64,000 nucleotides of DNA from the NCBI GenBank assembly GCA_002479415.1, contig DLMZ01000047.1, positions 2,984 to 66,983 on the forward strand. Direction: 5' to 3'. The stretch comes from Firmicutes bacterium UBA7523. GTDB lineage: Bacteria > Bacillota > Dethiobacteria > Dethiobacterales > Dethiobacteraceae. Below are positions 2 through 48,663 of the stretch, one piece after another; positions within the stretch are counted from its first letter, which is position 1; the number at the start of each line of letters is the position of its first letter. Under the pieces are notes generated by a model, which was given only the letters and a program-made list of their open reading frames with translations, ran no database searches and was not told where the DNA came from. Position numbers and translations under genes: made by a program.

Positions 2-307
2 CCGAGAACAGGAGGCCTGTTTTTCATGGCGCCTAACGCTGACCCTTATGACGGGAAACTGACGGCGGTTTTAGGGTACAAAAAGACAGCTTTTAGTATG
101 TTGCGCGTTTTACCAAAGACCATGTCTCCTGAAGGCGCATTTATTCATACTGAAGGCATTCAAGAAATTCATGCAACGCGTATAAAAATCCGTCTTGTAA
201 CTCCTTGCCCTGCTCACTGTGACGGTGAATTGTTTTCAAAGGAAATCGATTCTATTGAATACTCAGTTTTGCCGGGCAGGTTAAACGTGTTGGTTCCGGA
301 GCTATAA
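2..307 (+). CDS. Lipid/diacylglycerol kinase family protein, C-terminal part (5' end outside window)
   Basis: Frame is open from the window edge. ..GGLFFMAPNADPYDGKL.. resembles the GGG-x-AP-x-A-xxx-DG-x-L C-terminal signature of YegS/BmrU-type lipid kinases. Confidence 0.55.
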   Translation, partial: PRTGGLFFMAPNADPYDGKLTAVLGYKKTAFSMLRVLPKTMSPEGAFIHTEGIQEIHATRIKIRLVTPCPAHCDGELFSKEIDSIEYSVLPGRLNVLVPEL

Positions 308-362: not shown

Positions 363-1424
363 ATGAATGTTTGGGACTGCCTGGGGCAGGATGCGGAGTA
401 TTTGTTGGGGCACACTTGCGGAACTGTGCCTAAGGAGGATCTTCATCTTCCGGGGCCAGATTTTGTGGACAGAGTGTTTACGGACTCAGACAGGCCTGTG
501 CCTGTGCTAAGAAGTCTGGAGCAGTTTTTCAGGAACGGCAGACTCTCAGGAACAGGCTATTTGTCTATTCTGCCTGTGGATCAAGGGATTGAACATTCCG
601 GCGGCGCTTCTTTTGCTACTAATCCTGCTTACTTTGCTCCTGAGAATATTGTTAGATTGGCAATTGAAGGAGGCTGCAATGGAGTTGCTTCCACATTAGG
701 TGTATTAGGGGCAGTAGCTAGAAAGTATGCCCACAAGATACCTTTTATTGTGAAGCTTAATCATAACGAGCTTCTTACATACCCGAATGCCTATGATCAA
801 GTGATGTTTGCCAATGTTAAACAGGCTCGAGATATGGGGGCTGTAGCTGTCGGCGCTACTATTTACTTTGGCTCCCCAGAATCTCGTCGGCAAATAATAG
901 AAGTATCAGAAGCCTTTCGCATTGCGCATGATTTGGGGATGTTTACAATACTCTGGTGCTACCTTAGGAACTCTACGTTCAAAGTCGACGGGATAGATTA
1001 CCATGCAGCGGCAGATTTGACAGGGCAGGCTAACCATCTTGGCGTCACGATTAAGGCAGATATCATTAAGCAAAAGCTTCCCGAGACAAATGGCGGGTAT
1101 CCTGCAGTCAGCAGTTTAGGCAAAGAATATGGCAAGACAAGTCAAAAGGTATACGATGAACTGACAAGCGCGCATCCCATAGATTTAACTCGCTATCAGG
1201 TCGTAAACTGCTATATGGGCAGAGCCGGGCTGATAAATTCAGGAGGGGCTTCCGGAAAAAATGATATGGCAGAAGCGGTAAGAACTGCGGTAATTAACAA
1301 GCGTGCCGGAGGCATGGGGTTAATATCCGGGAGAAAAGCTTTTCAACGCCCAATGGTTGAGGGAGTGAAGCTTTTAAACGCCATTCAAGACGTTTATCTT
1401 GACAGTGAAATTACGATTGCGTAA
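363..1424 (+). CDS. fbaB: Class I fructose-bisphosphate aldolase (FbaB/DhnA family)
   Basis: 353 aa. Long stretches match my memory of E. coli FbaB ([81 protein letters not shown]). RBS GGGAGG lies upstream. Confidence 0.9.
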
Positions 1425-1449
1425 TTCTTGTATTAGCAAAGGCAACGAC

Positions 1450-1485
1450 AATTGTCAACCAATAGGCAATGATTGGTTGACAATT
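1450..1485 (+). promoter_or_regulatory. Candidate BirA operator (also a 14-bp stem hairpin after fbaB)
   Basis: Perfect inverted repeat AATTGTCAACCAAT..ATTGGTTGACAATT. The core TTGTCAACC-N14-GGTTGACAA fits the TGT.AACC-N14-GGTT.ACA biotin-repressor box and lies directly upstream of bioY. Confidence 0.55.
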
Positions 1486-1506
1486 ATTTTTTATTTGTGC
1501 TATAAT
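1477..1506 (+). promoter_or_regulatory. Sigma-A type promoter of bioY
   Basis: TTGACA (1477-1482), an 18-nt spacer, then TATAAT (1501-1506). The -35 box lies inside the right arm of the palindrome. Confidence 0.5.
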
Positions 1507-1534
1507 TCTGCTATATTGATTGAGGAGGCAGACA

Positions 1535-2086
1535 ATGAAGCCTAAATATTCCGTTCGAGATTTAATATTAATTTCACTATTTGCCGCATTAACAGCTGTA
1601 ATGGCTTATGTTTCAATCCCTTTGCCTTTTAGCCCAGTGCCGTTGAGCGGCCAAACATTTGCCGTTATGTTGGCCGGAGTTTTGCTTGGCGCTAGAAAAG
1701 GCGCTTTCAGTCAGATTATCTATCTATTGTTAGGCGTTGCAGGCATACCTGTTTTTGCCGGCGGTTATGCAGGGATAAGCCGTTTGGCCGGACCAACAGG
1801 AGGCTTTATTTGGGGCTTCGTTATTGGTGCGTATATTATAGGTAAGCTTGTGGAAGGAGAAAAGTGTCCTTCAATGGCTCGTTTGGTTGCAGCAGTTGTC
1901 GTTGGAGGCATAATTGCCGTTTATTTACCCGGAATTTTGCAGTTGGCTTACGTTACAGGGATGGCGGGGCGTCAAGCAGCTGTTGCCATGCTTCCTTATA
2001 TTCCCGGGGATTTGGTTAAAGTCGCGGCAGCGTCGGTTTTAGCCAAGCAAATGTTATCAATTCCTATTTTTAATGCCTCGTATTAG
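1535..2086 (+). CDS. bioY: Biotin transporter S-component BioY
   Basis: ATG at 1535 follows RBS GAGGAGG. Multi-pass membrane protein with BioY-like motifs (PFSPVPLSGQTFAV.L.G, GGF..GF). Confidence 0.85.
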   Translation: MKPKYSVRDLILISLFAALTAVMAYVSIPLPFSPVPLSGQTFAVMLAGVLLGARKGAFSQIIYLLLGVAGIPVFAGGYAGISRLAGPTGGFIWGFVIGAYIIGKLVEGEKCPSMARLVAAVVVGGIIAVYLPGILQLAYVTGMAGRQAAVAMLPYIPGDLVKVAAASVLAKQMLSIPIFNASY

Positions 2087-2221
2087 CGTGCAGCTAACTG
2101 CATAACATAGTAGGATAAACAGTTTCTCACAAGTAGGGCGGCAGTTACTTTAACTGTCGTCTTTTGCAAATATTTTTTCTGGTTTTTTTGCATATTAAGT
2201 GTTATAATACAGTAAATTCAC

Positions 2222-2240
2222 TAAATATTCAGAATATTTA
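2222..2240 (+). promoter_or_regulatory. 19-bp perfect palindrome, candidate MarR autoregulatory operator
   Basis: TAAATATTC-A-GAATATTTA lies between an extended -10 (TGTTATAAT, 2200-2208) and the RBS of the MarR gene. Confidence 0.35.
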
Positions 2241-2262
2241 TATAGCAGTAAGGAGGATTCTG

Positions 2263-2760
2263 ATGGAGAGCTTTAAAGAAACTGAAGTTTTCACCAAAGC
2301 ATTTCAAGAGATTTTTCCAAAATTGGTTCATTGCTTGGAAACAGAAGAAATGCGTGAACTAACAGGCCTTGGTATTACTCCGGGGCAAATTAACGCGCTG
2401 CTAATTCTTTATACGCATGATGATTTAACAATGGGCGAACTTTGCGCCGAATTGTTCTTAGCAGAAAGTGCAGCCACACGTTTAGTAGACCGTATGGTAA
2501 AAATGAACCTAATCCAGCGCAGAGGAGACGAAAAAGACCGCCGAATCGTACGCGTGTACCTGACATCTTACGGCAGACAACTGGCCAGCTTTGTGTTTGA
2601 GCGCAGGTCTCTGCGATTTCAAAAGCTGGCCGACCAGCTTACTCCGGAAGAAAGGAAAATGCTTGTTTTGTCGGTCAAAGCCGTACTGCGAGTAATAGGT
2701 AGTTCTGAGACACAAAGACAGTGTTTCCATGCTGTTGAAGATAAAGGAAAAAGCCTTTAG
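2263..2760 (+). CDS. MarR family transcriptional regulator
   Basis: ATG at 2263 follows AGGAGG. Winged-helix pattern LT..Q...L..L......T..EL......S.AT.L.DR....L..R......DRR. Confidence 0.8.
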   Translation: MESFKETEVFTKAFQEIFPKLVHCLETEEMRELTGLGITPGQINALLILYTHDDLTMGELCAELFLAESAATRLVDRMVKMNLIQRRGDEKDRRIVRVYLTSYGRQLASFVFERRSLRFQKLADQLTPEERKMLVLSVKAVLRVIGSSETQRQCFHAVEDKGKSL

Positions 2761-2787
2761 GGAGTTACTAGGTATTTCTGCTAAGCA

Positions 2788-3438
2788 TTAAAAACAACTT
2801 GCTGCTATTTTCTTCCGTATTTCCTCTACTTGTGAAATAATATTTTCATGTCCTACCAATGCGGAAATCATTGCCGAACAGGGGATGCCGCGCCGTCGCA
2901 CCTCATTAATATTTCCGTCATTAACCCCACCAATTGCTACCAGCGGGATACTATAATTCTTTGCTATATATTCAACTAGATCCAAACTCACAAGCTCTCC
3001 GGCGTCCGATTTAGTACCGGTTGGAAAAACTGGACCAATACCTACATAATCTGCTCCGCGGGCGATAGCATCTTCTACTTCTGCAGGTCTAGCAGCAGAT
3101 ACACCAATAACCATCTCTTGTCCAACGAGTTTGCGAACCTGCTCCGCGGGCAAATCGTCTTGCCCCACATGAACGCCGCCTGCCTTACTAAGTATGGCAA
3201 TATCCACATCATCATTTACAATAAACAAAACACCGGCGGGCTTACACATCTCCCGTATAGCTTTGCATTCGTCCAGCTTTTCTTTTTTTGGCTTATCTTT
3301 TTCCCGGTATTGAATAATTTTAATCCCGGCGTTAACCATTTGACGTACCACTTCAAGGTTGTCTCCTGCGGCGGATAGCGCCTCGCAGGTTATACCATAT
3401 ATGTCTGTTTGAAAAACTTCATTGATTTTATTTCTCAT
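2788..3438 (-). CDS. thiE: Thiamine-phosphate synthase
   Basis: Start moved to the internal ATG (MRNKINEV..) with RBS GAGGAGG. ThiE motifs: LYGIT, IQ.REK, .INDDVD.A, GVH.GQDD, IG.S, ADY.G.GP.F.T.TK, VAIGG. Confidence 0.85.
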   Translation of the reverse strand: MRNKINEVFQTDIYGITCEALSAAGDNLEVVRQMVNAGIKIIQYREKDKPKKEKLDECKAIREMCKPAGVLFIVNDDVDIAILSKAGGVHVGQDDLPAEQVRKLVGQEMVIGVSAARPAEVEDAIARGADYVGIGPVFPTGTKSDAGELVSLDLVEYIAKNYSIPLVAIGGVNDGNINEVRRRGIPCSAMISALVGHENIISQVEEIRKKIAASCF

Positions 3439-3673
3439 AATACTTGCCTCCTCTGCTTCTGAATACATTATATTCTCAAAACACCTGCCAGTAAAGACCT
3501 GTTGAAAATACAAAAATGAGGCTGCAGTTTTGCAGCTATATACTGGCCGTAACGCTTGAAACATTGATTTTCAAATGTTTCAGGTTTTTTTATTTTAATC
3601 TTAAAATTTAATATACTTTTGCGGAAACTATAGCAGCCTTTTGGTATAATAATGACGACAGGAGGAACTGCTG

Positions 3674-15390: not shown

Positions 15391-15852
15391 TTGATGCTTT
15401 TGTTTCCTGTTATTGCCGCTGTGGCGGCCATAGTAAAGGAAATTGTGCTGCTTGTATCTTACTTAAATAACAATTCTTTTCCCCAGCCCTTATCTCCCCG
15501 AGAAGAGAAGAGACACCTGGATTTAATGTTTCAGGGTGACCCCTATGCCCGCAGTATACTGATTGAGCATAATCTCCGTTTAGTTGCCCATGTAATAAAA
15601 AAGTTTGAAAATACAGGAGATGACCAGGAGGACCTCATCTCCATCGGCACAGTCGGCTTGATAAAAGCTATTGATTCTTTTAGAAACGATAAAGGTACTC
15701 GATTGGCAACCTATGCTGCCCGTTGCATTGAAAATGAAATTTTGATGCATATACGAGCCAATGCTAAACGAAAAGCAGAAGTTCTTTTGCACGACCCAAT
15801 AGGCAATGATAAGGATGGAAATGAGTTTACGCTATGTTTATATCTGTACTAG
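15391..15852 (+). CDS. sigK: Pro-sigma-K, N-terminal segment only (spoIVCB-like), interrupted by the prophage
   Basis: The pro-sequence plus regions 1.2-2.4 match sigma-K ([75 protein letters not shown]). The frame then ends after a few unrelated codons, and regions 3-4 are missing. Confidence 0.85.
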
Positions 15853-17384
15853 TCTAGCTTCGGCAGTATATCTAGCTCGAAGTCATCTCCAACTTGATGC
15901 TTTTCTTTGAGATAGACGGCACGCTCCACTACAGATTTGAGGAGCGTGTTTTTCTTTTGGATATCGGATGTGAGCGGGTATACCTTCAGTACATGCTCCA
16001 CGGTGGGGATAATGTCGAGTTGAGCCTTAGATCTCTTGATTTCCGCCAGGAGAGAGGCTTTGGCAGTCTCTATACCTACCTTGGCGTCTTCGATGCGCTC
16101 AGCGAGACTCTGTGACCTCTCAAGATATGTTTCCTCATCATATATGCCGCGCTCAAGGAAGTCATGCAGTTTTTCTTTCTGCTTTTCCAGCTCGGCCAAC
16201 TCTCGGGCTAATGATTCTTTAGCAGCTTCGCGCAACTTCACGGCATCTGTCGAAGGGGTTGGCTTCTTGTTACGCCTGCCCCACTGGGCCTTATATGTCG
16301 ATAGCCACTCCTCGAGAACAGTCAGCAGTCGCTGCTCCACAAGCTCAAATTTAGACCCTTTGTTGTTACACATGCGATTTTGGCAAATCATATGCGGTTT
16401 CTGCTTAGCGTACGGTCGGCGCACCATCATCATGCCGCACTTATCACACACGATTAGGCCAGCCAAAGGGTTAGACAATGCACCGTTAATAAAATACGGA
16501 GGGTGGGTTCTAGTTTCAAGTATTTTCTGCGCTTTTTGAAAATCTTCTTTACTGACTAATGCTTCGTGCTTGCCCTCGACTTCAATCCATTCATCCTGCG
16601 GCCTGGTCCGGGTGTCCTTGCGCTTGCCAGGCTCTTTAGATTTTTTGCATTCTTTTTTTTGCCACTGAATAACTCCGGAGTAGACTGCATTCTTGATTAC
16701 ATTCTGGACAGCAGCCTGTGACCAAGGTATACCGGTATAAGAGAGCAGACCCATCTTGTTCAGCTCATTAGCTATTTTTGCACATCCCAGATTGTCGTTG
16801 ATGTACCGTGAAAATATTAGCTTTACGACCGGCGCTTGCTCCTCGTTCGGAATTAGTGTTCTGTGACCGTCAATTTTGGCTATATCGTAGCCGTAAGGAG
16901 GACGGGGGGGCAAGTATCTCCCCTGCTCAACAGAGGCAATACGGCCACGCTGGAGCCTCCTCGTGATGAGCTTTAGCTCCCGCCGGGCCATGAAGGTTTC
17001 AAACTCTGAGTACTCTTCATCAAATTCGTCTGAAAGATCATAGGTTTTGCGCGGAGTGATTATTTTTGTTTTGGACTGCTGGAACGCTTCTAGGATGATG
17101 CCTTGTTCGCGCATACCGCCGCGGCCAAGCCTGTCCAGGTCCATACAAAGCACAGCGTCATAAGAACCGGCTTCAATCTCCTTGAGCAGCTCAAGCATCT
17201 CCGGCCGGTGAAGGATTGATTCTCCGGAGACTATCTCTTCGTAGATTTTAATTATGTTGAGATTTTTTTCTTTGGCCACTTGAAGCAGGGCGCGCTTGTG
17301 CTTCGCCAGGGTTTCGCCTTCGCCATGGGCTTCGGCTTCGATGTCTTGGCGGGATTTTCGCAGGTAGATTGCTACACGTTCCAT
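15849..17384 (-). CDS. Large serine recombinase (SpoIVCA-like integrase/excisionase)
   Basis: ATG at 17384 follows GAGGTGA. N-terminal resolvase domain ([11 protein letters not shown] with catalytic Ser, LDRLGR), recombinase domain, Cys-rich zinc ribbon (C.KCG....C.NRMC), coiled-coil C-terminus. Confidence 0.9.
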
Positions 17385-17419
17385 GCTTATCACCTCGGCT
17401 TAGATATATCATAGGTGGT

Positions 17420-41598: not shown

Positions 41599-41674
41599 GC
41601 GGCAAAATTAAAAAGGAAGACAATTAACAAACAAAGAAATCAACGCAGCCTTGAGGGTAGGTGGTGAGAGTGTA

Positions 41675-42604
41675 GTGGCCAGGAAGCGCAGCCCGGAGCG
41701 AGACAAAGCGTACGAGATGTGGAAAGAGAGCGGAGGGGAAATGCCGCTTGTTGATATTGCCGCGAAGTTGGGCGTTAGTCCGGAACAGATACGGAAGTGG
41801 AAGCATCAGGATAAATGGTGTGCTGGGGGGCCGGAGAAAAAGGTAACGAGAAATGAAAAGGTAACGTTACCAAGGAAGGAAGAAAAGAAAAAGCAGAAAG
41901 GTAGCGTTACTAATAGGGTAGACGAGCAAATACTAAAAGAGATTGAAGAGGCAGAACTGACTGAAAAGCAGAAGTTGTTCTGCCTTTATTATATAAAAAA
42001 CTTTAATGCTACTCAGGCAGCAATCAGGGCTGGGTATAGCAAATGTAGCGCTCACGTAAGCGGGCCACGTCTATTAGGTAATGATAGAGTTAGAAATGAA
42101 ATCCGCCGCCTCAAGGGGGTAATGCACGAAGAGTTACTAATTGATGCAATGGATGTTCTTGCTAAGTATATCAAGATTGCCTTTTCCGACCCTTCCGAGT
42201 ACGTGACCTTTGGGCAAAAAGAGATTCAGGTTATGAATATGTTCGGACCTCTTTACGAAGAGGTAGGTGAAGGTGAACACAAAGTTAAGAAGCCGGTTAT
42301 GAAGACTGTCAACTACATTGACTTCAAAGAAAGCAGCGACGTTGACGGCTCCATCATAACCGAGGTTTCCCAGGGTAAGGACGGCGCAAAAATCAAATTC
42401 GCCGATAAGATGAAAGCCCTGGAAAAGCTAGAGCTCTACTTCGACCTTTTGCCTGACAAATGGAAGCGCCGCTTGGAGGAAGAGAAACTAGAGGTGCAGA
42501 AAAAGCGGCTGGACATAGATGACAAAGATAAGACTATGAAAGTTATGATAGTGGACAATATCCCTGAAGGCCCTGAGATTAACTCAGAGGGTGATGAGCA
42601 ATGA
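41675..42604 (+). CDS. Terminase small subunit (Terminase_2-like with N-terminal HTH)
   Basis: GTG follows GGTGGTGAGAG. LTEKQKLFCLYYIKNFNATQAAIRAGYS is the classic small-terminase motif. Confidence 0.8.
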   Translation: MARKRSPERDKAYEMWKESGGEMPLVDIAAKLGVSPEQIRKWKHQDKWCAGGPEKKVTRNEKVTLPRKEEKKKQKGSVTNRVDEQILKEIEEAELTEKQKLFCLYYIKNFNATQAAIRAGYSKCSAHVSGPRLLGNDRVRNEIRRLKGVMHEELLIDAMDVLAKYIKIAFSDPSEYVTFGQKEIQVMNMFGPLYEEVGEGEHKVKKPVMKTVNYIDFKESSDVDGSIITEVSQGKDGAKIKFADKMKALEKLELYFDLLPDKWKRRLEEEKLEVQKKRLDIDDKDKTMKVMIVDNIPEGPEINSEGDEQ

Positions 42605-44106
42605 TGCCGCAGACAAGCGAAAGCCTTCAAGTAAACTTAAACGATATAATTGCGCCCAGTTTTTACTCCCTTCACCATGATGTTAAACAAGAGCGCTTCA
42701 CTGAATTTTGGTTGCGCGGCGGCCGTGGTTCAACAAAATCATCATTTGCCAGCGCAGAGATCATCTTGGGCATGATGCGGGACGCAGACGCCGGGGAGCA
42801 TACTAACGCCGTAGCCTTGCGCAAGGTTAAGGACACGCTCCACGACTCCGTCTTTGAGCAGCTTTCTTGGGCTATAGAGAAGCTTGGCGTGTCTCATCAA
42901 TGGCATATCCCGCAATCAAAGCTAGAAATAACATATAAGCCAACAGGGCAGAAGATTTTGTTCCGCGGAGCAGATAACCCAAAAAAGATTAAGTCCACAA
43001 AGGTTAAGAAAGGTTATATTAAGTATATTTGGTTTGAGGAACTCGATGAGTTCTACGGCCCGGAAGAAATTAGGGTTATCAATCAATCCCTCATGCGTGG
43101 CGGCGAAAAGTTTCTCGTCTTGTACAGCTATAACCCGCCGAAGAGCTCCCGGTCTTGGGTTAACCATGAAGCCAAGATCCCAAAGCCAGGCCGGAAAGTG
43201 CATACATCAGATTACAGAGCTGTGCCAAAAGAATGGCTAGGCTCTATTTTTATTGCCGACGCAGAGCACTTAATGCGCACGAACGAAATGGCTTACCAGC
43301 ATGAGTACCTGGGCGAGGAGGTTGGCACAGGGCTTGAGATATTTACTAACGTAACATTAAGGAAAATTACCGATGAAGAAATTAGGGCTTTTGACCGCAT
43401 AAAGCAAGGGCTTGATTTCGGGTACGCTGTGGATCCGGTTTGTTTCGAGAAAATGCATTACGATAAGACCAGGAAACGGCTCTATATCTTCTATGAGTTT
43501 AGTGGGATAAAGACATCTAACCGTAAGCTTTATGTCGCTATTAAAGATCAACTGTCAACAATAACGACAGCTGACAGCGCCGAGCCTAAGAGCATTTCAG
43601 AGTTAAAGGGGTACGGCATGCAAATTAAGGGGGCCAAGAAAGGCCCTGATTCCGTTGACTATGGTATTAAATTCTTGAGTGAAGATATAGAGGAAATCAT
43701 CATCGACCCGGTAAGGTGTCCCAGGGCAGCGAAAGAGTTTATAAACTACGCTCTGGAAACTAACCAGCAGGGCGAGGTTATAAGTAGCTATCCGGACAAA
43801 GATAACCACTGTATAACTGGTGACACTATAGTGAACACCTTGAGTGGTGACTTTCCAATCTCACAACTGGTTGGAAGAGAAGGGCTTGTTCATTGTTACG
43901 ATGAGAAGAATAAAAAAGCTACTGCGTCACGATATCTTGATGTGCGTCTAACTAGGGAAAAAGCAAAGGTATACGAAATTGAATTAGAAGACGGGCGGAG
44001 AATAAAAGCGACAGAAGATCATCTTGTATTAACCCAGGACGGATGGAAGCAGGTTAAAAACATCGGCTGTACTGATAGCATCCTTGACATATCCAACCAC
44101 GCTTGA
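42601..44106 (+). CDS. Terminase large subunit N-fragment (ATPase and most of the nuclease domain) fused to intein N-splicing half
   Basis: Walker A GGRGSTKS, Walker B IWFEELDE, nuclease Asp motifs. At 43810 Cys1 starts Hint block A (CITGDTIV), followed by block B (ATEDHLVLT). Stop at 44104-44106. Confidence 0.85.
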   Translation: MMPQTSESLQVNLNDIIAPSFYSLHHDVKQERFTEFWLRGGRGSTKSSFASAEIILGMMRDADAGEHTNAVALRKVKDTLHDSVFEQLSWAIEKLGVSHQWHIPQSKLEITYKPTGQKILFRGADNPKKIKSTKVKKGYIKYIWFEELDEFYGPEEIRVINQSLMRGGEKFLVLYSYNPPKSSRSWVNHEAKIPKPGRKVHTSDYRAVPKEWLGSIFIADAEHLMRTNEMAYQHEYLGEEVGTGLEIFTNVTLRKITDEEIRAFDRIKQGLDFGYAVDPVCFEKMHYDKTRKRLYIFYEFSGIKTSNRKLYVAIKDQLSTITTADSAEPKSISELKGYGMQIKGAKKGPDSVDYGIKFLSEDIEEIIIDPVRCPRAAKEFINYALETNQQGEVISSYPDKDNHCITGDTIVNTLSGDFPISQLVGREGLVHCYDEKNKKATASRYLDVRLTREKAKVYEIELEDGRRIKATEDHLVLTQDGWKQVKNIGCTDSILDISNHA

Positions 44107-44140
44107 TACGATAAGGTATGGGTATGAAGGGGGCTCAAAT

Positions 44141-44803
44141 ATGGCCGAAAAAGTGCGTTACGAAGATGGGCAGAAATTTGCTTATTTCAACGGCATTAAG
44201 TTTACGCGGGATAATAAAACAGGATATTATTTAAATTCAACCATTCGAAAAAGGCTCCACCGCTATATCTGGGAGTTTTATAATGGAAAGGCCCCAAAAG
44301 GCCATCACGTGCATCATAAGGACCGAGATAAGAGTAATAACGATATCAGCAACTTAGGGCTTTTAAGACATGGTAAACATGTGACACTCCACGGCATTGA
44401 GAATTCCATGGACGATGAGTGGCTAGAACGGTCAAGGGAAAACCTTAAAGTAAACGCAAGGCCAAAAGCATCTGAGTGGCATAGGTCCGAAGAAGGCAAG
44501 GAATGGCATAAGCAACACTACGAATCATGTAAGGACAAATTCCACCGCAAAGTAAAAAGAAACTGCGATAACTGTGGAGCCGAGTTTGAAGCGTTGGATA
44601 ACGGGCTCAATAGATTCTGCAGCAATAAATGTAAGTCTGCATGGAGAAGAGCGACGGGACTTGATGATGAGGTGAAACAATGTGAATTTTGCGGAACAGT
44701 TTTTATTGCCAACAAATACAGTAAGCAGAAGTGCTGCTCAAAAGCCTGTTCTAATAGGCTCTCTCCCAGGCTCCCCATCCTTCGCAAAGGTAAAGTCAGT
44801 TAA
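44141..44803 (+). CDS. Free-standing HNH homing-type endonuclease between the intein halves
   Basis: ATG follows GAAGGGGG. HHKDRDKSNNDISNLGLLRHGKHVTLH, plus C-terminal CxxC zinc ribbons. In a different frame from both intein halves. Confidence 0.8.
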   Translation: MAEKVRYEDGQKFAYFNGIKFTRDNKTGYYLNSTIRKRLHRYIWEFYNGKAPKGHHVHHKDRDKSNNDISNLGLLRHGKHVTLHGIENSMDDEWLERSRENLKVNARPKASEWHRSEEGKEWHKQHYESCKDKFHRKVKRNCDNCGAEFEALDNGLNRFCSNKCKSAWRRATGLDDEVKQCEFCGTVFIANKYSKQKCCSKACSNRLSPRLPILRKGKVS

Positions 44804-44975
44804 GTTTGTTGGGGAACACGATGTTTACAATATGGAAGTCGCAGACCACCATAACTTTGCGGTTAATGGTGGTCTTATTATTCACAATTGTATAGATGCT
44901 GCAAGGTACGCCCTAGAAGATGAGATGAAAAATGCCAAGGCTAAAGCGCTGGGTGCTAAGCCGCGAGGATTTTAA
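44682..44975 (+). CDS. Intein C-splicing half plus terminase large subunit C-extein
   Basis: GTG follows GAGGTGA (8-nt spacing). Blocks F/G VYNMEV..HHNFAVNGGLIIHN, then Cys+1 at 44889 and IDAARYALEDE (the conserved TerL ..DA.RY.. nuclease motif). Confidence 0.7.
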   Translation: MNFAEQFLLPTNTVSRSAAQKPVLIGSLPGSPSFAKVKSVKFVGEHDVYNMEVADHHNFAVNGGLIIHNCIDAARYALEDEMKNAKAKALGAKPRGF

Positions 44976-45001
44976 GTTTTAAGTAAGGATGTGAGCAGAA
45001 C

Positions 45002-46489
45002 TTGCCAAAACTCATAATCGGTAGCCAAGAGTACGAATCCTGGCCGCCAGACGATCCACAAAACAAAGCACGCCTGGAAAATTATAAGCGCTCCCGGCTG
45101 TTGTTTAAGGGTAAGCACCAGGACGTATATGAACGCATCCAGAAATGGCTGGAGCGCCAGGAAGATAAAGAGCTTATTTATATCGTCTGCAACTTTGCCG
45201 GCCTGCTTAGCAAAGTTTCTGCCGATATGCTTTTTGGTGAGCAGCCGCGCTTTGTGGCAGGAGAAGAGAAGTCAAAGGAGCAGGAAGCGCTTGATACCAT
45301 AGTCAAGAATAATAGTCTGCATGTCCTCAATTATGAGATGGCTCTTTCAGCAAGCTGGCGCGGAGAAGCGATATATAAAGTGCGCTTTGGTAAGTTCGCA
45401 GACTGGGCAGAGACTGAGCACGCGGTCATTGAGACAGTATCGCCCGAAATATTTTACCCTATTCTAGACGAGGACAACGTCCGGGGACTCAAAGGCGGAA
45501 TATTCGGCTGGGTAAAGCAAGGTCCTGGTGACAAGAAGTACCTGCGCATCGAGCGGCAGCTGCCTGGGCTTATAGAAAGCGAGCTATACGAGCTTGACGG
45601 CCGCAGTATCGGTCAGCGCGTAAAGCTCAATACTTTCCCGGAGTATGCTGACCTAGAAGATGTGCAGGAGACTAGATATCCTGGGTTGCTGTTTGAGGTC
45701 GTGCCAAACTGGCGGCTTGATGATGAGTTTTATGGGATTTCTGATTACTATGATTTAGAGGGAATCTTCGATGAGCTGAACAACAGGGTAAGTCGTATAT
45801 CTCGGGTCCTCGATAAACATGAGAGTCCTAAATTGATCTTGCCTCCCGGTATCATGAAATGGGACGAGAATTACCGGCGGTGGCACATCGAAAAAGAAGA
45901 CCTCGAAGCTATTGAGGTTAACCCGGCCGAGGAGCAAGTTGGGGACTTACCGCGCTATTTGACCTGGGACGCCCAGCTTGAAGCGGCATTCAAGCAGATA
46001 GACAAGCTGCTGGAGTTTGCCTTTATGGTGTCAGAGACTTCGCCGGACGCCTTCGGGCTTGGGAAAAGTGGCCAGGCTGAGAGCGGGAGGGCGCTGAAAT
46101 TTCGGTTGCTTCGTCTGCTGGCTAAGATAAACCGCAAAAAGCTCTACTTCGACGAAGCTTTACGAAATACACTTTACGCAGCGCAGTATCTCAACAACGT
46201 CTGGGGCCGCGGCCCGGAGCCGCAGGATGTCAGGATTGAGTGGCAGGACGGGTTGCCTGCGGATGAGTTGGAGCAGGCTCAGGTTGAGCAGACCCGCACT
46301 GGTAACAAAGCTACAAGCAGCGTCCGGAGCGCAGTGCGGCGGCTGGACAATTTGGATGGCGAGCAGCTGGAGGAAGAGCTTGAAGAGATAGCGAAGGACG
46401 AAAAGAGCCTGGGGGGGCAAGCCGCGGATCCTGCGCTGAGCATCACTTTGCCTGGCGTGGAGGGTGACGAAGAGCAAGAGGGTGAATAG
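45002..46489 (+). CDS. Portal protein (SPP1 gp6-like)
   Basis: Position after the terminase, about 495 aa, acidic C-terminus. Family call is from general pattern only. Confidence 0.7.
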   Translation: MPKLIIGSQEYESWPPDDPQNKARLENYKRSRLLFKGKHQDVYERIQKWLERQEDKELIYIVCNFAGLLSKVSADMLFGEQPRFVAGEEKSKEQEALDTIVKNNSLHVLNYEMALSASWRGEAIYKVRFGKFADWAETEHAVIETVSPEIFYPILDEDNVRGLKGGIFGWVKQGPGDKKYLRIERQLPGLIESELYELDGRSIGQRVKLNTFPEYADLEDVQETRYPGLLFEVVPNWRLDDEFYGISDYYDLEGIFDELNNRVSRISRVLDKHESPKLILPPGIMKWDENYRRWHIEKEDLEAIEVNPAEEQVGDLPRYLTWDAQLEAAFKQIDKLLEFAFMVSETSPDAFGLGKSGQAESGRALKFRLLRLLAKINRKKLYFDEALRNTLYAAQYLNNVWGRGPEPQDVRIEWQDGLPADELEQAQVEQTRTGNKATSSVRSAVRRLDNLDGEQLEEELEEIAKDEKSLGGQAADPALSITLPGVEGDEEQEGE

Positions 46490-48663
46490 TGATGTCCAAA
46501 TTTGGAGAAGGCAGCGGCGCTGCTCGCTTCAGCGATGTCCAGGCACAGAGACTGATAAAATTTTACGAACAGGCCGAACGTGAAATACTGGATCAGCTGA
46601 ACAGGGCATTACTTCGAGGCAACAAGACTGAGTATTTGGCCGGCATGAGGAGAAATATCGGGGCTATCCTAGGCGACCTGAGAAAGGGGAATAGAACATG
46701 GTGTGAAGAAGCGTTGCCAAGTGTGTACTCTCAAGGAATCCGCTCAACTGACATTATGTTGGGGCAAGAAGGGTTCAGGGTTAGTGATGTAGCAGGTTTT
46801 GGCACCCTCCATCAACAAGCGGCACAGGTCTTGGCGGAGAACACATATCAGCGGTTGGATAGTGTGGCGCAACTAATCGGGAGACGAACAGAGAGTGTAT
46901 ATCGCGACCTGGCCCTAGAGAATATTCGTGGTAGCGTAGTTGGGTATGACAGTTGGAGAGATGTAGCTAGGCGATATCACGAACAACTAGCAGAACAGGG
47001 AGTGACAGGATTTAAAGACGCAAAGGGTCGCAATTGGAATATGAAGAGCTATGCGGAGATGGTAGCTAGAACTAGCACTATGGAAGCGCATCTTCAAGGG
47101 ACTGCTAACCGCCTGGTGGAGCAAGGTCATGATTTAGTGAAGGTGAGCAGGCATCAAGGAGCTTGCGAATTATGCGTTCCCTGGGAGGGTTCGATATTAA
47201 GTATAACTGGCAAGACAGACGGGTACCCGACGTTAGAAGAAGCAAGGGGAGCAGGGCTGCTTCACCCGAACTGTTTCCCGGCTGGAGTATTAGTCAATGG
47301 TCCGGCACCATTGGCCGCGTTTGCCAGATGGTATGAGGGCGAGATAGTCATCATTACCACTGCCAGTGGAGTAGAATTGCCCGTCACCCCAAATCACCCT
47401 ATATTGACGCCTAAAGGATGGTTGGCTGCGGGACTGCTCAACAAAGGCGATGATATCATCCGCTACACAGGGCAAAAGGGGATGATAAGCGATATTGACC
47501 CAGACGATCAGGACATTCCAACCCCGATCGAACAAGTAGTTGACTCGTTCAGGGAGTCTTGCGGCGTGCCGTCCCGATGCATGCCAGTTACCCCCGAAGA
47601 CTTCCACGGCGACGGGGTCGGCTCCGAGGTCTATGTTGTATGGGCCGACAGCCTGTTGATGGGTGATAGCAATGTCTCTTTCGGCGAGCCATTCAGCAAG
47701 AATATGTTCTGTTTTGCTGATGTGAGATCCCACTTTTTGCTTACCTTTGGCACGCTTGTGCAGATCTTCATCAGAGCGCTTACTACCGCGCAGCGCTTGA
47801 TTGGCGGCACTAGTAAGAGCGCGTCGCTCTTCGGCTGTCATCCTTTCCATTCGGGTTCTCAAGGCTTCGGAGCGACTATTAGCAGTGGTAATGCCAAAAT
47901 TAGCGAGGCGTCTCTGAAGTGTAGCATGGTTAACACCCAAGCTTTCCGCAATAGCCTTCTTGGTTTCGCCAGCGAGATACCGTTGCAGAATCTTTTCGTT
48001 GTCCAAGGGAATGCGACGATTAATTCTTGCTTCGGCAAAGCTACGAATAGGGATACTATTTTTTTCAAGAATAGTTTTAACGGTTTGCTTGCCGACATGG
48101 AAGGTGGTCGCAAGTTGATGGAGCGACTCGCCGGAGGTATAGCGACGGATGAGATCACTAGCATCAAGGTTAACGCTTTTTCTGGACATGTTTATAACCT
48201 CCAAACTAAAGATGGTTGGTATGTTGCCAATTCAATTATAACACATAATTGCCGGCATTCTTATGGACTGCACATTGACCTTGACAAAGAGATCGAAGAT
48301 CTAGAAAAAGAGCTAAAAGATGTTGAAGATACATTGCCAGGCTATAAAAAAGCTGTTGTTCCCCCAGATAAACTAATTAATTATGTCTTAAATAAAGAAC
48401 ATTTACGTGGAGGCAAAGATAAGGCTATAGCTTTTGAAAGAGCTTTGGGTTATAATATTAATAACTATCAGGAGTTGATAGGCAATATTAAGGAAAACTT
48501 AAGGGCTTGGCCTGCTGCTTTAAAGGGTAAAAACCAATATGGTATGAAATATGAAGTCATGATGCTTCTAAGCGGGCCAAACGGGAAAACAGCAAAAGTG
48601 GTTACTGCTTGGTTGGTGGACAAAACAGGTGCGAGGTTGGTGAGTGCGTATGTCAAGGATTGA
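46489..48663 (+). CDS. MuF-like minor head (head morphogenesis) protein containing an intein and a C-terminal DUF6883-like domain
   Basis: MuF/SPP1 gp7 pattern ending in the conserved HPN-C-R motif. That motif is interrupted after HPN by 326 codons bounded by CFPAGVLV.. and ..SIITHN/C. Confidence 0.85.
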   Translation: MMSKFGEGSGAARFSDVQAQRLIKFYEQAEREILDQLNRALLRGNKTEYLAGMRRNIGAILGDLRKGNRTWCEEALPSVYSQGIRSTDIMLGQEGFRVSDVAGFGTLHQQAAQVLAENTYQRLDSVAQLIGRRTESVYRDLALENIRGSVVGYDSWRDVARRYHEQLAEQGVTGFKDAKGRNWNMKSYAEMVARTSTMEAHLQGTANRLVEQGHDLVKVSRHQGACELCVPWEGSILSITGKTDGYPTLEEARGAGLLHPNCFPAGVLVNGPAPLAAFARWYEGEIVIITTASGVELPVTPNHPILTPKGWLAAGLLNKGDDIIRYTGQKGMISDIDPDDQDIPTPIEQVVDSFRESCGVPSRCMPVTPEDFHGDGVGSEVYVVWADSLLMGDSNVSFGEPFSKNMFCFADVRSHFLLTFGTLVQIFIRALTTAQRLIGGTSKSASLFGCHPFHSGSQGFGATISSGNAKISEASLKCSMVNTQAFRNSLLGFASEIPLQNLFVVQGNATINSCFGKATNRDTIFFKNSFNGLLADMEGGRKLMERLAGGIATDEITSIKVNAFSGHVYNLQTKDGWYVANSIITHNCRHSYGLHIDLDKEIEDLEKELKDVEDTLPGYKKAVVPPDKLINYVLNKEHLRGGKDKAIAFERALGYNINNYQELIGNIKENLRAWPAALKGKNQYGMKYEVMMLLSGPNGKTAKVVTAWLVDKTGARLVSAYVKD
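47272..48249 (+). other. Intein (Hint domain) within the MuF gene
   Basis: Cys1 TGT at 47272. Block A CFPAGVLV, block B VTPNHPILT, then GWLAAGLLNKGDDI, blocks F/G GHVYNLQTKDGWYVANSIITHN, +1 Cys at 48250. 978 nt, in frame. Confidence 0.85.
47290..48189 (-). CDS. Vsr/DUF559-like (PD-(D/E)xK) homing-type endonuclease with two N-terminal HTH modules, encoded antisense inside the intein
   Basis: ATG at 48189 with GGAGG 7 nt upstream. Two resolvase-type HTH segments (GESLHQLATTFHVGKQTV; GETKKAIAESLGVNHATL). Core is GPYNIDLGADPVAVEVFGGNWH....H........L...GW.VL.VW. Confidence 0.75.
   Translation of the reverse strand: MSRKSVNLDASDLIRRYTSGESLHQLATTFHVGKQTVKTILEKNSIPIRSFAEARINRRIPLDNEKILQRYLAGETKKAIAESLGVNHATLQRRLANFGITTANSRSEALRTRMERMTAEERRALTSAANQALRGSKRSDEDLHKRAKGKQKVGSHISKTEHILAEWLAERDIAITHQQAVGPYNIDLGADPVAVEVFGGNWHASGRHAARLPERVNYLFDRGWNVLIVWVNIAYHPLLPCVADDIIAFVEQSRSQPSFRRQYRVIWGDGQFYSTGSGNDDYLALIPSGKRGQWCRTID

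Follow-up and report, generated by a model that had tools for sequence, protein, structure and literature searches.

A split-intein large terminase gene with a free-standing HNH_3 endonuclease gene in a Firmicutes prophage, and the conservation of its layout among phages

The large terminase (TerL) gene of a prophage in the Firmicutes bacterium UBA7523 assembly is divided by an intein whose N-terminal and C-terminal halves (IntN and IntC) lie on separate open reading frames (ORFs), with a free-standing HNH_3 endonuclease gene between them. The window analysed here is the whole 64,000-nt stretch of contig DLMZ01000047.1 (positions 2,984 to 66,983) that carries this prophage. The TerL gene in it is very probably a working fractured gene, that is, a gene whose class 1 intein has been split by the free-standing HNH_3 gene. 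This reading had been put forward in an earlier note on the same DNA (the original prediction), and it is supported by 46 diverged clusters of loci that share the layout, by two cultured phages (Lactobacillus phage CL2 and Brochothrix phage BL3) that carry the split, and by the colinearity of the two flanking TerL segments (exteins) with TerLs that have no intein.

The divided terminase gene of the window

The upstream ORF begins with the TerL N-extein, which holds the ATPase domain (Walker A GGRGSTKS, Walker B IWFEELDE) together with the greater part of the RNase H-like nuclease domain; the N-terminal Walker A/B ATPase and the C-terminal RNase H-like nuclease are those of a PBSX/Terminase_3-type large terminase. 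The same ORF continues through IntN to a stop, the endonuclease gene follows as a separate ORF with its own start, and a third ORF carries IntC, whose intein part terminates ...VYNMEVADHHNFAVNGGLIIHN at 44888, followed by the +1 nucleophile and the rest of TerL (Table 1). The residues of a class 1 intein are all in place (Cys1, TEDH, terminal HN and Cys+1). The N part of the Pfam Intein_splicing profile (positions 11-92) was matched by IntN at 2.5e-07, and among the solved inteins of the PDB the matches were DnaB, DnaE and gp41-1 (best E 1.3e-06). The conserved core of IntC, comprising blocks F and G (SFAKVKSVKFVGEHDVYNMEVADHHNFAVNGGLIIHN), is 37 aa long and lies at 44778-44888, whereas the first ~32 aa of IntC form a leader that is non-conserved by alignment and has a 122-nt overlap with the 3' end of the HNH gene.

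The insert measures 1079 nt, leaving a remainder of 2 on division by 3. With 32 stops in the IntN frame after 44104 and 20 stops in the IntC frame before 44676, no single frame crosses it. On recheck of the window, the ORF, motif, stop and frame coordinates of the original prediction all hold, as does its account of an insert of this size that is not a multiple of 3 and uses three frames. The spacer that it had placed between the ribosome-binding site and the ATG of the HNH gene, eight nucleotides, is actually 7 nt.

The two TerL pieces, which are co-oriented, jointly cover a full-length homologue. In the protein database, the nearest relatives of this TerL are 417-440 aa long, lack an intein and are 73-86% identical over the N-extein. 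Two of these intein-less sequences, P0008 and P0013, read ...SSYPDKDNH/TIDAARYALEDEM... (DKDNH/TIDAARY, the slash marking the insertion site), and the C-extein of the window is colinear with them; IDAARYALEDE, which had been named as the missing TerL motif, does correspond to the ends of intein-less TerLs. The 403 aa and 28 aa of the exteins align gap-free to P0008, P0013 and L133, the last being Desulfotomaculum sp. BICA1-6, which has the closest intein-less TerL with an organism name. There, TerL directly adjoins the portal gene with no HNH gene, and the site sequence is GATAATCATACTATAGATGCCGCAAGGTACGC. When the window TerL was spliced virtually and compared with the Desulfotomaculum protein, no gap was found at the junction and the sole change there was Thr to Cys at position +1. 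The insertion site lies two residues ahead of the Asp in the TerL motif H-x-IDAxRY, an Asp that we take to be a catalytic residue of the terminase nuclease domain.

The contiguous TerL mini-inteins of relatives (132-145 aa) match IntN over its residues 1-95 and the intein C-half over its final 37 residues; relative to them, the IntC leader of ~32 residues is an insertion. Therefore, the window intein is divided at the canonical point of endonuclease insertion, and its two halves amount to a full HINT domain.

Table 1. Features of the divided terminase gene and its neighbours in the window, and the loci of three phages in which the HNH gene lies within a contiguous TerL-intein ORF
Feature	Position	Strand	Remarks
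TerS (small terminase subunit)	41651..42604	+	Pfam Terminase_2 9.1e-44, Phage_terminase 2.2e-18
TerL-IntN ORF, 501 aa	42601-44106	+	Frame 1
TerL N-extein, 403 aa	42601..43809	+	Ends ...SSYPDKDNH; Terminase_3 (PF04466) 2e-34, Terminase_3C (PF17288) 3.5e-09
IntN (intein N-half), 98 aa	43810..44106	+	Cys1 (CITGDTIV), block B ATEDH, tail ILDISNHA, TGA 44104-44106
Promoter-like site (HNH, possibly IntC)	44084..44112	+	10/12 match with TG
HNH ribosome-binding site	44126-44133	+	GAAGGGGG; 7 nt to ATG 44141
HNH_3 endonuclease gene, 220 aa	44141..44803	+	ATG start; frame 2 (mod 3); HNH_3 (PF13392) 9.3e-15
IntC ribosome-binding site and start	44669..44684	+	GAGGTGA 44669-44675, GTG 44682; inside HNH codons ...DDEVKQC...
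IntC-TerL-C ORF, 97 aa	44682-44975	+	GTG start; frame 0
IntC (intein C-half) part, 69 aa	44682..44888	+	Intein_splicing profile 119-155, 1.1e-05
TerL C-extein, 28 aa + stop	44889..44975	+	Cys+1 at 44889, then IDAARYALEDEMKNAKAKALGAKPRGF (IDAARYALEDE...)
Portal gene	45002..46489	+	SPP1_portal 1.9e-25; next in packaging module
Clostridium phage phiCDHM19 (L129)	443-2842		Contiguous TerL-intein ORF, HNH in other frame
Tetrasphaera phage TJE1 (L130)	993-3179		Contiguous TerL-intein ORF, HNH in other frame
Acinetobacter phage Highwayman (L131)	894-3176		Contiguous TerL-intein ORF, HNH in other frame

Conservation and altered states of the cassette

Related loci were collected by means of the IntC motif, a seed that favours close relatives of the window intein. 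A total of 38 genome loci and 80 viral loci were fetched in this way, and 128 loci in all, the window included, were scored by script. A split intein with an HNH homologue between its halves was found at 90 of the 128 loci, a split intein with no HNH homologue at 6, and a contiguous intein at 17. Of the contiguous loci, nine carry TerL mini-inteins and lack HNH altogether; the junction motifs of most of the remaining ones look ribonucleotide-reductase-like, as judged by eye only. The 90 loci of the first group, CL2 among them, collapse to 46 clusters (less than about 90% nucleotide identity). Comparison among homologues, which the original prediction had proposed, shows the three-ORF layout to be conserved in these diverged clusters. 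The frame offset from IntN to HNH was 0, +1 and +2 in 11, 21 and 14 clusters, respectively, a spread that is the expectation for an untranslated spacer, and cassette lengths fall into all three residue classes modulo 3. The offset from HNH to IntC was +1 in 39 of the 46, with overlaps mostly of 100-140 nt.

The stop and the pieces on either side of it recur at the protein level as well. Eight other TerL N-fragments (489-499 aa, 55-61% identical) stop just past IntN, several of them with the tail ILDISNHx, and in six diverged N-fragments the stop is at the same point as in the window or at most 4 codons off. Downstream of the N-fragments in the retrieved loci are an HNH_3 gene and, after it, an IntC ORF usually overlooked by gene callers; free-standing IntC-TerL-C proteins that were found measure 62-98 aa. 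The cassette is also present in TerLs without detectable similarity to that of the window, where IntN is 43-62% identical and the full-length HNH proteins are 36-65% identical. Across unrelated TerL families its site is the conserved DH/x(I/M)DAxRY or a few residues away. The cassette may have spread across these families by homing.

A decayed element would offer a different account of the window: a once-contiguous, in-frame HNH intein that suffered two +1 frameshifts or assembly indels, leaving a dead TerL in a defective prophage. The original prediction had named the two frameshifts as its alternative. A single path does open given +1 shifts at 44084-44103 and 44676-44800, and the contig is of metagenome origin. 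However, the layout of stop and restart recurs across 46 diverged clusters, in which the IntN-to-HNH offset varies, and again in the cultured phages CL2 and BL3, and no in-frame IntN-HNH-IntC fusion was found in the 128 loci or among the best 120 of ~1200 HNH homologue clusters. Additionally, the HNH gene has a promoter-like site, ribosome-binding site and ATG of its own, the exteins are intact and 86% identical to relatives of working length, and identical 501-aa and 220-aa proteins are recorded under NCBI, ENA and Logan, which are possibly not independent assemblies. The conserved layout, the variable offset and the kept splicing residues together make a pattern that would not be expected if an element in decay had suffered two chance frameshifts. 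The account of two frameshifts in a dead prophage was rejected on the conservation in the 46 clusters and in CL2 and BL3, and decay is considered extremely improbable.

The intein halves might alternatively act as a dimerisation module that holds the TerL pieces together non-covalently, with no splicing. A C-extein of only 28 aa favours such an assembly, and the HNH-interrupted NrdA of phage Aeh1 is a known case (cited in PMC2677866; listed as PMC3045599). Against it, the residues that serve splicing only are kept across the 46 clusters: Cys1 in 45, the TxxH motif in 44, and both the terminal HN and a +1 Cys or Ser in all 46. A bulky HINT domain two residues from the Asp of IDAxRY would also seem hard to tolerate. 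Assembly without splicing is therefore judged unlikely, and a fractured gene whose products splice in trans is preferred.

Two phages in culture carry the split. In CL2, TerL-IntN ends at a stop and the HNH gene begins with an ATG 12 nt on, in the TerL frame, while the IntC-TerL-C ORF is unannotated and overlaps the HNH 3' end; the TerL of this phage has no detectable similarity to that of the window, and CL2 has been counted in titres in inactivation studies. BL3 encodes TerL-IntN and gp3 (IntC-TerL-C), with HNH reduced to its last zinc module between them. Its GenBank record is that of an isolated temperate phage, and BL3 has reportedly been isolated and propagated (Kilcher et al. 2010). Since CL2 and BL3 carry the split, a split TerL is compatible with phage growth.

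Other loci display the cassette in altered states. At L063 (1784-2257) the HNH gene is gone and IntN and IntC lie in the same frame with a single TGA and 60 nt between them; a TTGACA...TGA promoter remnant is kept and IntC has its own ATG. The gap at L098, L100, L101 and L077 (about 2290-3510) holds a 406-aa Dam-like D12-class N6-adenine DNA methyltransferase instead of HNH, and in loci of the L106 type (2408-2920) HNH is preceded by a pair of small ORFs of 62 and 73 aa that have no Pfam match. A tRNA suspected by eye in the gap of L114 was not found by ARAGORN.

A protein search of deposited phage genomes detected the HNH homologue inside the annotated TerL of phiCDHM19, TJE1 and Highwayman. 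Each of the three has a contiguous intein overprinted by an endonuclease gene: over 490-650 nt neither the TerL-intein frame nor the HNH frame contains a stop, against 6-33 stops in the third frame, even at 30% GC. The IntC frame of these overprinted loci is the HNH frame +1, as in the fractured forms. The conserved +1 overlap of the fractured forms may be a remnant of overprinting or its precursor.

In Exiguobacterium phage vB_EauM-23 (L132, 1068-3250), the same HNH occupies the same TerL site with no intein halves. Its TerL terminates ...EDKNNHSMAA and a stop, the HNH homologue comes next, and ...CDATRYAMEMDM... is found ~70 nt past the HNH stop. No Rfam intron was detected in this insertion, although an intron interrupted by an ORF could escape detection; the locus may be an intron that has this endonuclease at the shared TerL site, or else a gene that is really broken.

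A second TerL site for the same intein family was also observed, four residues downstream (...NNHSIDA/C...HN/CRY...). It is occupied in split form (P0092), as a contiguous mini-intein (P0110, 47 member sequences) and in overprinted form (Highwayman), and the loci tied to it are P0092, P0110/L134, L131, L030 and L117.

Expression signals and the HNH protein

The claim that the HNH gene has its own ribosome-binding site was sustained, as this site and the ATG are present along with a conserved promoter-like site. The predicted -35 element is TTGACA at 44084-44089 and the predicted -10 element is TACGAT at 44107-44112, with a 17-nt spacer. The TG of the IntN TGA stop (44104-44105) forms a putative extended -10 element, giving the overall form TTGACA-17-TGnTAnnAT. 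In L003, L005, L008, L053, L072 and L076, the -35 element is exactly 20 nt ahead of the IntN stop with the same 17-nt spacer, and the -10 boxes there are often better than that of the window; a comparable site in L050 is displaced by 9 nt. Scores as high as that of the promoter-like site were reached by no more than 1% of the control segments taken from these loci. In a scan of the 46 clusters, positional conservation was clear only in the subclade of the window (7-8 clusters), the scan window being too crude elsewhere. No RNA hairpin that would sequester the HNH ribosome-binding site, of the kind reported from some fractured loci, was found, the fold of 44070-44170 being no better than shuffles (z = -0.49), and neither a group I intron nor any other Rfam family was detected at 43500-45200.

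The start region of IntC coincides with the HNH codons for a (L/I)DD(E/V) motif, where, in many relatives, the +1 reading of GAT GAT G is ATG ATG. Relatives begin IntC at this same place, many of them as MM(K/R)..., and in most the start codon is 59-75 codons ahead of the junction, with a ribosome-binding site before it in only some. In the window, the ATG-ATG at 44664-44669 is closed by a TGA at 44673 and the GTG used lies six bases further on; L005 has the same form (MMR, a stop, then GTG). Within the 122-nt overlap, the conserved IntC core begins ~20 nt past the last conserved HNH residue. Selection on the overlap acts on the HNH frame up to its last zinc module (C181, C184, C199 and C203 invariant).

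The preponderance of the +1 offset between HNH and IntC, with overlaps that usually measure 100-140 nt, could point instead to recoding, in which a programmed +1 frameshift in the overlap yields an HNH-IntC-TerL-C fusion and IntC has no initiation of its own. Yet start codons stand ahead of the junction in most relatives, BL3 and L063 have an ATG-initiated IntC in spite of having lost the HNH gene, and the free-standing IntC proteins of 62-98 aa were called independently. The +1 offset can be an inherited feature, because it is present in the contiguous inteins with an overprinted HNH too. Recoding thus appears highly improbable, and separate initiation of IntC is the preferred reading.

In the HNH protein, an HNH domain at the N terminus is joined by a long helical linker to two CxxC...CSxxC zinc modules at the C terminus (AlphaFold2 pLDDT 92). 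Its homologues fall into ~1200 clusters at E <= 1e-5, the best 120 of which are all 197-225 aa long and contain HNH_3 only. In 35 homologues, the catalytic-domain residues H58, H59, N67, N71, H80 and H84 are invariant, as are the two Cys4 modules (C142, C145, C160, C164 and C181, C184, C199, C203); a catalytic motif combined with a modular DNA-binding part is the make-up of an HNH_3 homing endonuclease. A search of the PDB with the protein sequence gave no match, and the best PDB fold match of the model was the homing endonuclease I-HmuI, which is weak (E 0.026).

The middle gene, considered by itself, could be a packaging accessory factor of the terminase as in HK97-like phages and not a homing endonuclease. 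It does lie inside the packaging module, and HNH proteins have been reported to work with terminases (Kala et al. 2014). Intein-less and mini-intein relatives with the same TerL nevertheless have no HNH gene, the gene has been lost in BL3 (as in L063), and a Dam-like methyltransferase replaces it in L098-type loci. HNH is coupled to the intein across unrelated TerL families, and the fold match, weak as it is, is to a homing endonuclease. An accessory role is accordingly very unlikely, and a homing endonuclease remains the preferred identity of the HNH protein.

Proposed mechanism, context and relation to known systems

In the proposed mechanism, three products would be made from the locus. TerL(1-403)-IntN, with its 98-aa intein half, would end at the TGA that doubles as the TG of the extended -10 element; the HNH endonuclease would be expressed from its own promoter-like site, ribosome-binding site and ATG; and IntC-TerL (28 aa) would be initiated at the GTG preceded by GAGGTGA inside the HNH 3' end. 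IntN and IntC would then associate, complete the HINT fold and splice in trans, with Cys1 and Cys+1 as nucleophiles aided by the block B TxxH and the terminal HN. The predicted spliced product is a TerL of 431 aa that would differ from intein-less relatives only by the junction Thr to Cys. The HNH enzyme would cut intein-less TerL alleles at the conserved site, and this cutting may carry the entire cassette, from the IntN tail and stop through the promoter and HNH to the IntC start, between unrelated TerL families.

Several points weigh against a working fractured gene. Splicing in trans, cleavage by HNH and activity of the promoter are each deduced from sequence, the window is a metagenome contig, and the survey was seeded with the IntC motif. 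The ATG-ATG start common in relatives is closed in the window, so IntC relies on a GTG and its expression level is uncertain. The closest fold match of the HNH model is weak. No DnaE-like charge complementarity was found between IntN and IntC in the window (-1 and -1), and split forms showed no charge difference from contiguous mini-inteins in the expected direction.

The window corresponds to contig k127_44504 of a hydrocarbon metagenome (SRR2132206, PRJNA291107), and prophage-related regions lie at 15849-17393 (-) and 19000-64000. The prophage encodes a serine integrase, TerS, portal, major head and tape measure proteins, an SbcC-like protein, a DNA methyltransferase and a PAPS-reductase-like protein; the 3' end of TerS and the start of TerL share 4 nt. 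From its gene content the prophage looks complete, and its terminase is probably not dead.

A second intein is present in the same prophage, in the minor capsid (Mu-F-like) gene at 46489-48663 (+), with the junctions ...LLHPN/CFPAGVLV ... SIITHN/CRHSYG. This intein is contiguous, and the Pfam matches of the gene are Phage_min_cap2, Intein_splicing (281-587) and DUF6883. An antisense ORF of 304 aa within it (47290-48204, -) has two helix-turn-helix domains and a weak match to REase_MTES_1575, which we take to be a Vsr/PD-(D/E)xK-like family. Similar inteins, with an antisense Vsr-like endonuclease, have been described in minor capsid genes (bioRxiv 10.1101/2025.01.02.630785).

The third ORF of such loci is easily overlooked, as IntC was not called in 5 of 6 distinct loci with gene calls and is unannotated in CL2. 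The present loci point to a new, large family of natural split inteins at a canonical site with Cys1 and Cys+1, sampled here in 46 diverged clusters and with ~1200 clusters of HNH homologues. Natural split inteins are wanted as protein-ligation tools; gp41-1, NrdJ-1 and IMPDH-1, split inteins of Dassa and colleagues, were reportedly characterised later. Because members of the family reside in cultivable phages (CL2 and BL3, and in overprinted form phiCDHM19, TJE1 and Highwayman), the models in which an endonuclease breaks an intein and split inteins originate become open to experiment, and the model of split-intein origin need not rest on metagenome fragments. Additionally, with the junction next to the IDAxRY motif, the nuclease activity of the terminase is expected to require splicing, which provides a simple functional read-out.

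A broader and rather doubtful speculation is that this one intein-HNH family spans every stage of a proposed route between contiguous and split inteins while carrying its own sigma-A-type promoter, with HNH serving lysogens as a weapon of exclusion or marker conversion and the gap serving as a landing site for cargo. The stages would be the mini-intein, the contiguous intein with overprinted HNH, the fractured form, the HNH-less split and the re-used gap (methyltransferase, small ORFs), several of which occur in growable phages. The final IntN codons together with the stop codon make up the putative promoter. Were it to fire in lysogens, HNH and perhaps IntC-TerL-C would be made constantly, and the intein-less terminase genes of superinfecting relatives would be cut.

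Among known systems, atypically split inteins of phage large terminases (GOS-TerL, AceL-TerL and the consensus Cat-TerL) have been demonstrated experimentally to splice in trans. In these inteins the split point is close to the N terminus, giving an IntN of 25-37 aa and an IntC of 104-115 aa, whereas the corresponding lengths in the window are 98 aa and 37-69 aa; with an IntN of 98 aa and an IntC core of 37 aa, the window intein falls outside this class. In the PolB gene of the cultured Pseudomonas jumbo phage MIJ3 (PMC6892783), an HNH-family ORF lies between ORFs with blocks A and B and with blocks F and G, a single case without conservation analysis and in a DNA polymerase B gene instead of TerL. 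A search of the available literature for an HNH-fractured TerL at the canonical site found no description, which does not prove absence.

Gosselin et al. (bioRxiv 10.1101/2025.01.02.630785) described actinobacteriophage inteins with homing endonucleases out of frame or antisense. Their architecture resembles that of phiCDHM19, TJE1 and Highwayman, in which the TerL-intein frame is open and the HNH homologue lies in another frame, although their out-of-frame endonuclease is endonuclease VII-like and that of the window family is HNH_3. The window intein is split and not overprinted, because its intein frame is closed by 32 stops. The Aeh1 nrdA gene, in the account given of it in PMC2677866, is split into two ORFs of one operon by the HNH gene mobE, whose 3' end overlaps the downstream ORF; there, no splicing-competent intein is present and the two chains assemble non-covalently, unlike the window locus with its split intein.

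The closest match is with the fractured genes of Dassa et al. 2009 (NAR 37:2560, PMC2677866), with an IntN of 88-105 aa and an IntC of 33-54 aa, ranges into which the window IntN (98 aa) and IntC core (37 aa) fall. In those loci the endonuclease 3' end likewise overlaps the IntC start, by 6-69 bp compared with 122 nt in the window. Their endonucleases are GIY-YIG or Vsr-like, HNH having been just predicted as possible, whereas that of the window is HNH_3. Their lone terminase locus is gp17-like with an atypical split point, in contrast to the canonical split of the window, and they come from marine and freshwater metagenome fragments, whereas the window family occurs in Firmicute prophages and cultured phages. 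It was proposed in that work that the invading gene brings along a stop, signals for expression control and a start codon for the downstream piece, and the predicted expression signals of the window fit this model. Overall, judging from the sequences compared, the arrangement is best described as a Dassa-type fractured gene, belonging to what appears to be a large family mostly missed by annotation.

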